Origin: an uncultured Nitrososphaerota archaeon
Lineage (GTDB): Archaea > Thermoproteota > Nitrososphaeria > Nitrososphaerales > Gagatemarchaeaceae
Direction of reading: 5' to 3'
DNA length: 64,000 bases
NCBI GenBank assembly: GCA_963703285.1
Contig: OY969807.1
Location: 1,056,001 to 1,120,000 of the forward strand
Shown: piece after piece, positions 60,198 to 64,000 of the stretch
Layout: every line of letters starts with the position of its first letter
Position numbering within the stretch: position 1 is the stretch's first letter
Made by a program: the position numbers and the translations under genes
Notes under the pieces: model-generated
The model's input: only the letters and a program-made list of their open reading frames with translations
Told to the model about the DNA's origin: nothing
Databases searched by the model: none

Positions 60198-60503
60198 CTA
60201 GCGGTGGAAGGCCTTCGTATCGGCCGCGCCTTCCAGGACCTCCACCGATTCCTCCTGCCACTTGTGATGGCAGTGTACGCATTCGAAGGTGGTCTCGAAC
60301 GTCTCCGTCTCCACAGGAACCTCTGTCTCGATCGGTGATGGGGTGGGGTTCTGGAGACTGCCGTCGGCTACCAGACCGGCCCTCTCGGCCGCCTGCTCCA
60401 GGACGACGCGCTCGGTGTGGTGCTCGGTGTTCACGAGCTCTTTCCCCTTCTTCTCGACCGAGAAGCGCTTCCCGCATTTGGGACATTTCTTCAGCAGCTT
60501 CAA
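60198..60503 (-). CDS. Small protein with split CxxC...CxxC zinc ribbon
   Basis: CPKCGKRF...FECVHCHHKW. Confidence 0.75.
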   Translation of the reverse strand: MKLLKKCPKCGKRFSVEKKGKELVNTEHHTERVVLEQAAERAGLVADGSLQNPTPSPIETEVPVETETFETTFECVHCHHKWQEESVEVLEGAADTKAFHR

Positions 60504-60594: not shown

Positions 60595-61014
60595 CTAGAG
60601 AGCCCTCATCCTGTTGTTCTTCGGGTTGTGCTCGACCTCGGCGAGGCCGTTCGCCTCGAGGACGGGCGGGACGTACATCGCGAACCTCCCTCGGAGCCCC
60701 TTCTTCGTTCCGTACCACCCGCCGACGGGGTTCGAGGGCGAACGCCCCCACGCCTCGACGGTGCCTTCCGCGGCGGGCTTCATCTCGTCAGCGCTTCCGA
60801 GGAGCATCCAGTCGCCTCGCTTCTTGAGCATCTCGTGAAGATCGTCGATCGCCCGGAGATGGTAGCGGAGCTGCGTCTTCCCGACCTGGACGACGAGGGT
60901 AGGAGGGTTGCTCGTCTCGTCCCTGTAGGCCTCGAACTCTGAGGTCCCGGGCGGTGTCTTCAGAATCCAGGGTGAAGCCTTCGTGCCTTTGCCCTTCACG
61001 GTTTCCTTTGGCAT
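60595..61014 (-). CDS. Conserved hypothetical protein
   Basis: PWILKTPPG, LGSADE.KPA..GTVEAWGRS..NPVGGWYG..KGLRGRF; host-like codon usage. Confidence 0.8.
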   Translation of the reverse strand: MPKETVKGKGTKASPWILKTPPGTSEFEAYRDETSNPPTLVVQVGKTQLRYHLRAIDDLHEMLKKRGDWMLLGSADEMKPAAEGTVEAWGRSPSNPVGGWYGTKKGLRGRFAMYVPPVLEANGLAEVEHNPKNNRMRAL

Positions 61015-61283: not shown

Positions 61284-62168
61284 CTAAGGCGTCTCGGCGG
61301 TCTCGGCGAGGGGCTGCGGAGCGCTCCCTGTCCCTCGTTCCGCTGCGTCGCCGACCACGTGAGTCTTCTCGGGCTTCTCGAGGAGGTGCTGGAGCCGCAG
61401 TGGACCGAGAGTGCCTCCCCTTCGCGCGTGGATCACCTCGGCCATTATGCTCACGGCAATCTCGGCAGGAGATATCGCGCCTATGTCTAGGCCCACGGGG
61501 GCGTAGACCTTGAGAATCCTCTCGACTGGTACGCCCTGATCCTTGAGCTGCTTGAAGGTGCTGTTCACCCTGTTCTTGCTGCCAATCATCCCGATGTACC
61601 TCGCGTTCGAGTCGATGACGGCTGAAAGAGCCTCGAAGTCGTACCGGTGGTCGGTCAGCATCAGTATGCTGTCGAACTGGTTGATCGGTATCTCCTTGAT
61701 CTTGTGCAGGATACCCTGGGTGTATACCTCGCACCCGGGAAAGACCTCTTTGTCGGCGAAAGGGTCGAGCACTATCACGTCGTAGTCGAGCATCTTGGCG
61801 ATCTGGCAGACCGCTCTTGCGACCCACCCCGAGCCGAAGACTATCAGCCTCTCACGCGGTTCAATAAGTTGCATCATCATCTTCATCTTGCCCCCGCAGG
61901 ACATCCCGATCCCCGACCAGCTGTTGTCCCCGAGATTGAACTCCTCAATCCTTGTCTTGCCGTCCTCGAACACCCTCCTGGCGGCCTTGACGACATACCT
62001 CTCAATGCAGCCGCCTCCGATGGTCCCGCACGTGGGTCCGTCCTGGAGAATCGCCATCTGCGCCCCGCCTCCCTGCGGGGCAGAGCCCTCAGCGTCGATT
62101 ACGGTCGCGATGACGATCTTGTTCCCCTCGGCCAGCTTCCTTCCAACGAAACTGTAGAACTCATCCAT
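61284..62168 (-). CDS. xdhC: XdhC/CoxI family molybdenum-hydroxylase maturation factor
   Basis: GSAPQ, GTIGGGCIE, GMSCGG, YIGMIGSKNR and APVGLDIGAISPAEIAVSI. Confidence 0.92.
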   Translation of the reverse strand: MDEFYSFVGRKLAEGNKIVIATVIDAEGSAPQGGGAQMAILQDGPTCGTIGGGCIERYVVKAARRVFEDGKTRIEEFNLGDNSWSGIGMSCGGKMKMMMQLIEPRERLIVFGSGWVARAVCQIAKMLDYDVIVLDPFADKEVFPGCEVYTQGILHKIKEIPINQFDSILMLTDHRYDFEALSAVIDSNARYIGMIGSKNRVNSTFKQLKDQGVPVERILKVYAPVGLDIGAISPAEIAVSIMAEVIHARRGGTLGPLRLQHLLEKPEKTHVVGDAAERGTGSAPQPLAETAETP

Positions 62169-62197
62169 GGCTGTTCCACCACTCTCGACGCGGCGGC

Positions 62198-62554
62198 CTA
62201 GTCCCACCTTGCGCCGCAGGGACCGATCACGGGCATCGGCTTCTCCACCCTGACCTCTGGCGACTTCTTGACAAAGATGTGGAAGTCGGGACCGTCTTCG
62301 TAGGACCTGGAGACCTCCTGCCCGTGGTTCCAGCAGTACTTCAGGACGTTCTCCTTGGAGACGTGCTCGTTGACTATCACTTCAAGCGTCTGGCTTAGCT
62401 GAGCGTCGGACAGCGCCTTCTTGACCATGAGAATCGGCTTGGGGCAGAGCTGGTCTCTGCAGTCTACGACGTTCGCCACCTTCCCCTCAGGTCCTGTGGA
62501 TACCGCCGAGGACGCCGCGGGCTCGACTGTTTGCAGCGAAATCGTCTTCTCCAT
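62198..62554 (-). CDS. TusA/SirA family sulfur carrier
   Basis: VDCRDQLCPKPIL CPxP motif; extra C-terminal PCG. Confidence 0.85.
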   Translation of the reverse strand: MEKTISLQTVEPAASSAVSTGPEGKVANVVDCRDQLCPKPILMVKKALSDAQLSQTLEVIVNEHVSKENVLKYCWNHGQEVSRSYEDGPDFHIFVKKSPEVRVEKPMPVIGPCGARWD

Positions 62555-62632
62555 AACCGGAACGAGCGGCAAGTCCGATATTTATGGGAAGCGGTATAGC
62601 TTACCCACCGCCGCACCGCCCGTGGCGGACGG

Positions 62633-63505
62633 TCACCACTCGTCCAGGGCCTTCTTCAGAGCTTCCTCTATGTGGTCGACGATCTCGAAGACCTTCGTGG
62701 CGGGCGTGGGGTGGCTCAGCTCTCCCGCGAGTCGGTTCGCCTTCGACGCTATCAGGCAGGCCCTCACCGGTTCTAACCCTCCCGCCACCAGCGCGGAGAC
62801 GATTCCGGTTATCGTGTCTCCCGTCCCCCCGATGGGCTCCAGGACGGGAATGTTCGGCTCTGAGACCGTGTGGACTATCTTGCCGCTGTCGACTATGAAG
62901 TCAGTGGGGCCCTTCACCAGGAGATAGCGAGGGGAGTTCTTCTCGGAGTAGGCCTGGGAGATCAGTCTCGGGACATCGGTCGTGTCGACCTCGAAGAGCG
63001 CTGCCTTGACGTAGGCGGGGTGCCCGGCATCCGAGTCGGCGAGGAAGGAGATCTCCCCTGCGTCGGGCGTGAAGAGGTCGAACTTCTCGCAGACCCTCGT
63101 CGCCTTGGCGATCAGGAGCGCGCCAGCGTCGGCTATCATGAAGGGCTTCTTCGCCCAGTAGTCCGACATCTCGACGAAGGAGAGGAACTCGTTCCTCAGC
63201 GGCAGGATGTAGTGGAGCGTCACCGTCGAGGGGCCGAGGCCCCCCGCATCCTCGGTGAGGAACTTGTAGACGAGCTTCGAGCCCGCTCCCTCGCCAAGGT
63301 CCCCGGCGACGACGCTCATGGGAGGCTCGGTGCCCAGCGCCTGGGTGGTCTTCAGGGCGGCGGCCATCATCGCCGTTGCCCCGATGGAGAGCATCTCCTT
63401 CGGCACCTCCATCTCGCCGATGTGCATGGTCTCGCCGTCGTACTTCACCTGCCCCACCGTGACGGATTCGGTCGTAAGGGGGAGAGTCCCGGAAAGCAGG
63501 AGCAT
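62633..63505 (-). CDS. Ribokinase-fold (PfkB / NAD(P)HX-dehydratase-like) protein of unknown function
   Basis: IADAGA, FTPDAGEI.FLAD..HPAY, LLVKG..D and IGGTGDTITG anion-hole motif. Confidence 0.8.
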   Translation of the reverse strand: MLLLSGTLPLTTESVTVGQVKYDGETMHIGEMEVPKEMLSIGATAMMAAALKTTQALGTEPPMSVVAGDLGEGAGSKLVYKFLTEDAGGLGPSTVTLHYILPLRNEFLSFVEMSDYWAKKPFMIADAGALLIAKATRVCEKFDLFTPDAGEISFLADSDAGHPAYVKAALFEVDTTDVPRLISQAYSEKNSPRYLLVKGPTDFIVDSGKIVHTVSEPNIPVLEPIGGTGDTITGIVSALVAGGLEPVRACLIASKANRLAGELSHPTPATKVFEIVDHIEEALKKALDEW

Positions 63506-64000
63506 CTACTTACCCTTCCACTGCTTCAGCGCGACCTCGTAGGCCTTCTGGAGGGTGTAGGCGCAGAGCGTGAAGCCGATCTGGGCAGGCGCGACGGTGT
63601 CCTCGAGCGTCTTCCCGACCATCTTGACGGCGAGCAGCGGGATGTCCGGGCACCCGCCGCCCGAGACGTTCACGACCGTTCCCGTCTTCTTCTCGTAGGT
63701 CAGCTTCATGTTCCCGACCCTGACCATCATGTAGTCGCCGAAGTCCACCCGCTTGACGAGCTTGCTGATCTGCAGCTCCGGGAGGTCGCCGGTGAACTTG
63801 AAGATGACGTCAAAGACGTTGATCCCCTGCACCCTGAGGATCTCCTCGGCCGCCATAGCCTCGCTGGTGGGGACGGAGACCGAGAGGTCGCAGCCCGTCC
63901 TCACGTCCGGCGGAGGGGAACCCGAGCGGGTGTGGAACCCGGCGCTGATGAGCATGTCCTCGGCCCTCATGCCGTCCCTGAAGTGCTCGAAGAGGAAGAC
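63506..64000 (-). CDS. DUF3343 (putative Se/S carrier) domain protein, 5'-truncated
   Basis: F.H....MRAE..L..AG...PPPDVRTGCDL plus C-terminal NVSGGGCPDIP and GFTLCAY. Confidence 0.78.
   Translation of the reverse strand, partial: VFLFEHFRDGMRAEDMLISAGFHTRSGSPPPDVRTGCDLSVSVPTSEAMAAEEILRVQGINVFDVIFKFTGDLPELQISKLVKRVDFGDYMMVRVGNMKLTYEKKTGTVVNVSGGGCPDIPLLAVKMVGKTLEDTVAPAQIGFTLCAYTLQKAYEVALKQWKGK

Follow-up and report, generated by a model that had tools for sequence, protein, structure and literature searches.

The 64,000-nucleotide stretch analysed here, called the window in the following (G000:C1:1056001-1120000, contig OY969807.1 of an uncultured archaeon of the Gagatemarchaeaceae, Nitrososphaerota), ends with four co-oriented genes on the minus strand encoding a DUF3343-type carrier, a divergent ribokinase-fold enzyme (referred to as the kinase), a TusA-family sulfur carrier and an XdhC-family chaperone of the molybdenum cofactor (Moco). 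We give about even chances to the proposal that this cluster is an ATP-assisted sulfur relay ending at XdhC-bound Moco, and it is most likely sulfur and not selenium that the four genes would feed into molybdenum enzymes. The core of the cluster is a widespread two-protein module of uncharacterised chemistry, consisting of a carrier with three cysteines and a divergent, NnrD-like enzyme of the ribokinase fold. Enzymes of the xanthine-oxidase family are inactive without a terminal sulfido ligand on Moco, and to our knowledge a NifS-type desulfurase acting together with XdhC is the only documented prokaryotic donor route for this ligand.

The four open reading frames (ORFs) are located at 63506..64000 (open at the 5' end), 62633..63505, 62198..62572 and 61284..62207 and are tightly packed. 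The carrier gene extends 42 nt past the window edge to 64042 and encodes 178 aa with an N-terminal DUF3343 domain (Se_S_carrier, PF11823) and a C-terminal domain annotated as DUF8182 (PF26554). Its TAG stop codon (63506-63508) abuts the ATG (63503-63505) of the kinase, a 290-aa NnrD/ThiM-like protein with a Carb_kinase match. TusA has 124 aa with the CPKP cysteine and a C-terminal tail, and XdhC has 307 aa comprising an XdhC_CoxI and an XdhC_C Rossmann domain. Taken at its longest, the XdhC ORF shares 10 nt with TusA, and if Met14 (62166-62168) is the start, 29 nt lie between the end of TusA and XdhC. A preliminary description of this DNA had already reported the order and orientation of the four genes, the abutting of DUF3343 and kinase, a distance of about 30 nt between TusA and XdhC and motif cysteines in DUF3343, TusA and XdhC; ORFs and Pfam scores agree with all of this, and the cysteines were all found and are conserved.

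The association of carrier and kinase is conserved far beyond this archaeon. We compiled 48 loci, one from the genome under study (the own genome) and 47 from species-representative genomes, which hold 60 kinase genes in total, and 56 of them could be assessed for their upstream neighbour as they are preceded by at least 450 nt of sequence. A gene for a carrier with DUF3343 and the C-terminal domain is located directly upstream in 55 of these 56. Both proteins also occur as natural fusions, since all six long homologues (514-588 aa; five plus P0241) combine Se_S_carrier and Carb_kinase in one chain. A structure model of the complex of carrier and kinase reached an ipSAE of 0.87, with 0.00 for the best of three controls; 116/157 solved complexes and 2/215 mismatched pairs attain the ipSAE mark applied. 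The model runs agree in at least 89% of the contacts, and the predicted local distance difference test score (pLDDT) of the partner is at least 80. At the predicted interface lie 22 of the 43 invariant kinase residues, among them the GGTGD motif, where 7.1 would be expected, and 12 of the 24 invariant carrier residues, among them the SGGGCPD loop with C131, where 4.6 would be expected. From this model, whose scores express confidence and are not a measurement, the two proteins are predicted to bind each other, with the kinase holding the GGG-Cys/Sec-PD loop of the carrier (Sec, selenocysteine) in the cleft of its nucleotide site. The model points to the cysteine loop of the carrier, rather than a free small molecule, as what the kinase would activate.

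The carrier itself matches Se_S_carrier/DUF3343 with 42.8 bits over the full 178-aa protein (gathering cut-off 25). Three cysteines, C51 in GCDL (codon 63890-63892), C131 in GGGCPD (63650-63652) and C160 in LCAY (63563-63565), are invariant in 31/31 aligned homologues. The label PF26554 for the C-terminal domain was taken from precomputed annotations of the protein and its homologues, and the name DUF8182 follows the Atlas listing. With a profile of this domain, 110 representatives out of 1.84 billion were found at E <= 0.001 and 79 at 1e-10. Most of them are about 170-200 aa long and are matched in their C-terminal half, and five have 514-588 aa. Compared with solved structures the carrier gave no match at E <= 1 by sequence and none at E <= 0.001 in the PDB using Foldseek. 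The matches that VIA-align gave for residues 5-85 were all of the common ferredoxin-like type (best Z 8.4, root-mean-square deviation 2.5, 69 aligned), its list being filled by matches of the N-terminal domain so that the C-terminal domain is barely probed. No new fold is claimed for the carrier.

For the kinase, Carb_kinase (PF01256) was matched with 36.9 bits against a Pfam cut-off of 27. It had been considered that this protein might be a canonical NAD(P)HX dehydratase, and this identity could be excluded: the equivalog-domain model TIGR00196 is matched with only 36.7 bits (cut-off 129.85), a canonical NnrD is encoded elsewhere in the genome (a 286-aa Carb_kinase protein with 165 bits, G000:C1:672799-673659), and hhalign aligns the kinase with this NnrD over residues 121-284 only, i.e. 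the C-terminal half (probability 97.1%). A profile search of the PDB aligned residues 101-285 with the Nnr protein TM0922, and among solved structures only remote Nnr and ThiM matches were obtained by sequence. The AlphaFold model (pLDDT 91.2) predicts a ribokinase-like fold, for which Foldseek listed 277 PDB matches at E <= 0.001 with TM0922 on top (E 6.7e-08, TMq 0.60), followed by ThiM, PdxK and ThiD. The anion-hole motif GGTGD (62816-62830) is invariant in 30/30 sequences, and the family is tightly conserved and shows motifs of its own in invariant columns, namely KFDLFTPDxGE, HPAYV and IGGTGDT. It is widespread, with 1888 proteins at E <= 0.001 among 7396 candidates, and relatives from Nitrososphaerota, Conexivisphaerales, Chloroflexota and Dehalococcoidia are labelled 'sugar kinase' or 'NAD(P)H-hydrate dehydratase' in their sources. 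Under both names the family is systematically mis-annotated, which is corrected here.

The surroundings of the pair differ between lineages. YedE/YeeE is encoded near it in 30/34 non-Nitrososphaerota and 6/14 Nitrososphaerota loci, TusA or a YedF-like protein in 18/34 and 13/14, SelD in 3/34 and 0/14, XdhC in 0/34 and 13/14, and a DsrE-like protein in 1/34 and 11/14, respectively. The wiring of the pair to a YedE/YeeE channel, to TusA/YedF and sometimes to SelD in bacteria and Bathyarchaeia suggests a role in chalcogen uptake. That the linkage to xdhC would be conserved in other genomes, as the preliminary description required for its proposal, holds within the Nitrososphaerota, where TusA-XdhC follows the carrier-kinase pair in 13 of the 14 loci, and fails in the other 34 loci and in both kinase-bearing genomes examined of another Nitrososphaeria family, coded f9. 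As the linkage is confined to one lineage, the kinase is not a Moco-specific enzyme and XdhC is a lineage-specific attachment. As side observations, two Nitrososphaerota loci (L016:1155-4853 and L020:1372-5482) carry a [NiFe]-hydrogenase gene set directly upstream of the pair on the same strand, with small subunit, large subunit and two Fe-S proteins, to which L020 adds a HycI-like protease and a CoxM-like gene. Downstream of the pair and a split YedE in a Chloroflexota locus (L048:8378-10252) we observed genes for DUF134, Nitro_FeMo-Co (NifX/NifB-like) and a Mrp/NUBPL-type P-loop NTPase, which may form a metal-cluster carrier set.

A link to molybdenum enzymes is suggested by TusA and XdhC. 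TusA of the window (PF01206, 61.3 bits, cut-off 28.6) probably starts at Met7 (62552-62554) and shows LCPKP at residues 42-46 with C43 at 62444-62446. It ends in the tail KPMPVIGPCGARWD with the terminal sequence GPCGARWD, the tail cysteine C119 being encoded at 62216-62218. The tail with the pattern KPxPxxGPCGxRWD-stop is lineage-specific, being present in 13/13 Nitrososphaerota loci and in none of five bacterial or Bathyarchaeial TusA proteins encoded near the pair. An assignment of this TusA as the two-domain selenium-metabolism protein YedF (about 194 aa) was rejected, as TIGR03527 is matched with 51.4 bits (cut-off 110) and only at profile positions 1-75 of 194. XdhC exceeds the cut-offs of both its domains (XdhC_CoxI, PF02625, 77.2 bits; XdhC_C, PF13478, 117.3 bits), and its C67 in GGGC (62007-62009) and C104 in MSCGG (61896-61898) are cysteines in 32/32 orthologues as well as in the second XdhC of the genome. 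It remains below the equivalog cut-offs of TIGR02964 (108.5 vs 161.6) and of NF045664, the AOR maturation factor (214.1 vs 350).

In a sample of 201 genomes of the class Nitrososphaeria, with families coded f6 and f9, the kinase was found in ten genomes, i.e. the own genome, five of nine genomes of f6 and four of ten of f9. The tail-bearing TusA was restricted to the own genome and five f6 genomes, all six of which also carry the kinase, and XdhC was present in 3/3 f6 genomes checked and in 0/2 of f9. Using the back-translated tail pattern we collected 41 metagenome stretches, from which seven chance matches without TusA (L069, L071, L080, L089, L095, L101 and L102) were dropped before counting, leaving 34 true tail-TusA genes. 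XdhC lies directly downstream of tail-TusA in 24 of the 31 metagenome loci whose downstream sequence extends for 300 nt or more, and the kinase lies upstream in 14 of the 22 that offer 600 nt or more on the upstream side. A Pfam scan of six of the seven loci without adjacent XdhC (L079 was left out) revealed Mo-hydroxylase genes next to tail-TusA in L072 (divergent CoxS-like and CoxL-like genes) and L096 (CoxM-like), and a split YedE in L094. L079 and L092 match L072 in the sizes and order of their ORFs, the partial upstream ORF of L092 giving no Pfam match. A TusA with terminal PCG is linked to XdhC in 24/31 loci and to Mo-hydroxylase subunits in at least two of the other seven, and its association with Mo-hydroxylase genes thus does not depend on the carrier-kinase pair.

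The own genome encodes nine large subunits of the xanthine-oxidase family (PF02738), so that possible clients, on which the preliminary description depended, are indeed present. It also contains two XdhC genes. The second is located in a cluster (G000:C1:694317-699132, L065:6317-11132) with a NifS-like protein (Aminotran_5), XdhC and a CoxM-like protein on one strand, beside genes for a MocA/MobA-like NTP transferase and MoeA and, further on, MoaA. This is a classical donor-plus-chaperone arrangement, in which the slot next to XdhC is taken by a sulfur donor of a known kind. A DsrC/TusE acceptor was not found in the genome (no match to PF04358).

Divergent from the cluster and beyond the window edge, a DsrE-like gene (64105-64494, L001:4105-4494, 73.3 bits), a DsrH-like gene (64507-64767, L001:4507-4767, 35.3 bits) and a DsrE/F-like gene (64817-65131, L001:4817-5131, 34.7 bits) follow. 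The cluster had been thought to continue past the edge; this is correct for the 42 nt of the carrier gene, the next genes being the divergent trio. Neither in the window nor on the contig beyond position 64000 did we find YeeE/YedE, SelD, YqeB/YqeC, a cysteine desulfurase or CoxLMS adjoining the cluster, which were the neighbours anticipated there. Beyond the trio lie unrelated genes, namely YtfJ/DUF2953, LysE, a radical-SAM HMPTM-like gene and a GmrSD/methylase/helicase island. This defence-like island (L001:12791-18447, 72791-78447 in window numbering and thus past the edge) encodes the N and C domains of GmrSD on separate ORFs, together with a D12 N6-adenine methyltransferase, DUF7226 and a ResIII/helicase protein. 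At the other end, just downstream of XdhC, the minus strand encodes a DUF6855 protein (60595-61014, 227 bits) and a protein of 101 aa (60198-60503) that has two CxxC pairs and weak zinc-ribbon matches, a neighbourhood that is not kept in locus L010. The sequencing runs listed with the stretch are four DNA runs of one soil-metagenome study, with no RNA run among those listed.

Some relatives of the carrier are selenoproteins. In 12 Dehalococcoidia loci (L024, L028, L032, L034, L038, L040, L041, L042, L044, L045, L046 and L048) the carrier ORF is broken by a single in-frame TGA located exactly at GGG-x-PD, the position of C131. These are 12 of 13 split Dehalococcoidia copies examined; L029, whose TGA lies in a shifted, X-containing reading, does not count among the 12. 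C131 thus corresponds to a Sec/Cys position in relatives and is therefore a reactive, chalcogen-handling residue. SelD was detected with 362-377 bits, itself with one in-frame TGA, in 5/5 checked genomes with a TGA carrier. A hairpin GGCUC-GGUCU-GAGCC about 14 nt after the carrier UGA may lend weak support to Sec decoding, its conservation being confounded by the coding stretch and double changes occurring in 2/14 pairs; a search of Rfam with the region after the UGA in L048 gave chance-level matches only. These Dehalococcoidia possess two paralogous carrier-kinase pairs, one carrier having Cys and the other the in-frame TGA (Sec) at GGG-x-PD.

The carrier of the window codes for a TGC/TGT-type Cys, not TGA, at GGGCPD. 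In the own genome (95.98% complete) no SelD over cut-off was found (best model match 65.3 bits vs 125), there is no match to TIGR03172 or TIGR03309, the markers YqeC and YqeB, and no YedE, and no tRNA-Sec is among the 42 tRNAs identified by aragorn with the intron option on. A selenium trait was hence rejected for this genome, and SelD over cut-off was likewise found in 0/5 related kinase-bearing archaeal genomes. The selenium half of the sulfur/selenium relay that had been suggested is thus unlikely here, and the idea must be narrowed to sulfur, with the kinase as part of a general carrier-enzyme module and not as a Moco enzyme. Two further observations concern selenium in other genomes of the class. 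One kinase-bearing f9 genome encodes a protein (G013:C131:94-852) which matches the SelD model with 101.9 bits, below 125 and well above other AIRS paralogues, and is perhaps related to SelD. In a Nitrososphaeria genome without SelD over cut-off, a paralogue of TusA contains a single in-frame TGA (G060:C40:7104-7379), for which pseudogene formation, an assembly error or another cause may be responsible.

Taken together we propose the following sequence of events for the sulfur relay. Sulfane sulfur would be loaded or activated on the cysteine loop of the carrier in a nucleotide-dependent step and would then pass to the DsrE-like proteins and/or to TusA. The tail cysteine of TusA might hand it on to XdhC-held Moco, which would accept it to give the Mo=S ligand needed by enzymes of the xanthine-oxidase family. 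Gene content, the conservation of the pair, its natural fusions, the Sec/Cys equivalence and the lack of selenium-trait markers in this genome are observed, binding is predicted by the model, and we infer the use of ATP, the direction in which sulfur moves and the role of Moco as its acceptor. A bolder version, which we regard as unlikely though worth stating, is that carrier and kinase represent an unrecognised nucleotide-dependent pair acting directly on protein-bound chalcogen that has been rewired via tail-TusA to a Mo=S route independent of a cysteine desulfurase. The ribokinase-fold subunit would then phosphorylate or activate sulfane sulfur or selenium on the GGG-Cys/Sec-PD loop of its partner, and the pair would be functionally analogous to SelD, with the Sec/Cys-loop-plus-ATP logic of the latter split over two proteins. 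The rewiring would have happened in non-ammonia-oxidising Nitrososphaerota, with TusA providing a swinging C-terminal cysteine arm.

Several observations weigh against a relay to Moco. The pair occurs without any XdhC in all 34 non-Nitrososphaerota loci and in both f9 genomes, and XdhC can therefore be at most one of several acceptors. Tail-TusA lacks an adjacent XdhC in seven of 31 metagenome loci, and in L013, L014 and L016-L018, which share one archaeal architecture, about 3 kb separate the kinase from TusA-XdhC, a gap that in L016 holds YedE and opposite-strand genes. One kinase fragment (L043) has no carrier gene. No Mo-hydroxylase gene is located near the cluster, the nearest of the nine being about 97 kb away, and with a NifS-like/XdhC pair already present in the genome a second route is not obviously needed. 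The cluster could instead be a general sulfur/selenium trafficking hub without a special tie to Moco, with XdhC as a lineage-specific neighbour and with acceptors elsewhere, such as in tRNA thiolation, in the synthesis of Fe-S or thio-cofactors or in the assimilation of thiosulfate. The linkage of the pair to YedE/YeeE in 36/48 loci and to XdhC in only 13/48 would fit this, as would the kinase-bearing f9 genomes with XdhC in 0/2 and the established fact that DsrE/TusA relays serve several acceptors (abstracts of PMC11094781 and PMC11073785). We nevertheless consider such a hub rather improbable for this archaeon, in whose genome neither a DsrC/TusE acceptor nor YedE was found, since at least 26/31 assessable metagenome loci connect tail-TusA with genes for XdhC or for Mo-hydroxylase subunits, and since tail-TusA is found in the class sample only in kinase-bearing genomes.

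Other rivals concern the substrate of the pair. All characterised relatives of the kinase act on small molecules, NnrD, ThiM, ThiD and PdxK being the top structure matches, and its C-terminal nucleotide-binding half is homologous to NnrD, so that the enzyme might act on a nucleotide cofactor in damaged or intermediate form, such as NAD(P)HX, or on a pterin or dinucleotide form of Moco, with the carrier as a mere redox or regulatory partner. We hold this to be distinctly unlikely: a canonical NnrD is encoded elsewhere, the N-terminal, substrate-side half of the kinase cannot be aligned with NnrD, the residues that are invariant in the family are located at the predicted contact with the loop of the carrier, and most loci link the pair to genes for chalcogen transport or carriers, not for cofactor synthesis. 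NnrD chemistry is the phosphorylation of a hydroxyl group followed by elimination, and YedE/YeeE channels, to which the pair is often linked, import thiosulfate or selenium oxyanions. Together with the three invariant cysteines of the carrier this would allow a sulfiredoxin-like reaction that uses ATP to repair or reduce an oxidised Cys/Sec or an oxyanion adduct bound to the carrier, in which the kinase phosphorylates an oxygen of Cys-S(O)x or of a Cys-S-SO3/SeO2 adduct and a second cysteine resolves the product. Such a repair function seems very unlikely to us as the explanation of this cluster, because the genome has no YedE channel and the chemistry is a mechanistic variant compatible with the sulfur relay rather than a separate biological role. 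Most improbable of all is a delivery of selenium to selenium-dependent Mo hydroxylases, in which Moco would receive a labile Se ligand from the cluster. It would be consistent with the selenoprotein carriers of Dehalococcoidia, with SelD adjacent to the pair in 3/48 loci and with the association of DUF3343, YedE and YedF with selenium use given in parts of Lin et al. 2015 (PMC5322559). It is contradicted by the Cys, not Sec, in the carrier of the window, by the lack of SelD over cut-off, YqeC, YqeB, YedE and tRNA-Sec in the own genome and by the related kinase-bearing archaea with SelD over cut-off in 0/5.

Our literature searches, supplements aside, gave no account of the kinase partner, DUF8182, the tail-bearing TusA or the selenoprotein described here, and titles and abstracts on XdhC and TusA report no linkage of the two genes. 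In Lin et al. 2015 we found no kinase-fold partner, tRNA-Sec kinase being the only kinase mentioned and 'YjeF' being absent from the text, and the paper on Gagatemarchaeaceae (PMC10640624) shows no occurrence of molybd-, xanthine, DsrE or selen-. If the proposed relay is true, a route from TusA, DsrE-like proteins and an ATP-fold enzyme would show how the sulfido ligand is provided in organisms with many enzymes of the xanthine-oxidase family, as with the nine encoded here. The cluster also gives a first functional context, in a testable setting, for DUF8182 and the mis-annotated kinase family. As the pair occurs in selenium operons with YedE, YedF and SelD and its carrier contains Sec in Dehalococcoidia, its chemistry, once solved, would bear on the handling of selenium from uptake to SelD as well.

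The XdhC/NifS4 system of Rhodobacter capsulatus, which reportedly sulfurates Moco and inserts it into xanthine dehydrogenase, shares with our cluster an XdhC-family chaperone (PF02625 plus PF13478 with the GGGC and SCGG cysteines) encoded beside a sulfur-supplying protein. In contrast, the neighbours here are tail-TusA, the carrier-kinase pair and DsrE-like proteins and not a pyridoxal-phosphate-dependent desulfurase, and XdhC falls short of the TIGR02964 and NF045664 equivalog cut-offs. With the TusA-DsrEFH/TusBCD relays, which act in tRNA thiolation in E. coli and in cytoplasmic sulfur oxidation, it shares the joint occurrence of genes for a TusA with the CPxP cysteine and for a DsrE/DsrH/DsrE-like trio. 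It differs from them in that no DsrC/TusE was found in the genome, that TusA bears the additional GPCGxRWD arm and that the relay is joined to XdhC and an ATP-fold enzyme. The selenium neighbourhood of YedE, YedF and DUF3343, as treated in parts of Lin et al. 2015 (PMC5322559), where DUF3343 is described as a putative Se/S chaperone of 80-100 aa, resembles our system in the conserved cysteine of DUF3343 and in the linkage of relatives to YedE, YedF-like TusA and SelD. Here, however, DUF3343 is fused to DUF8182 and paired with a kinase in a genome having neither SelD nor YedE. The C-terminal domain of NnrD/YjeF is similar to the kinase in its ribokinase-like fold, the anion-hole motif GGxGD and the homologous C-terminal half, the differences being the unalignable N-terminal half, the family-specific HPAYV insert and the score far under the TIGR00196 cut-off. 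Finally, SelD is comparable by an analogy of logic only, as it also combines a flexible Gly-rich loop, whose Cys is Sec in some organisms, with an ATP-using site. SelD has an unrelated AIRS/PurM-like fold, loop and nucleotide site are distributed over two polypeptides in the carrier-kinase pair, and as some loci contain SelD next to the pair, the pair is not a simple replacement of SelD.

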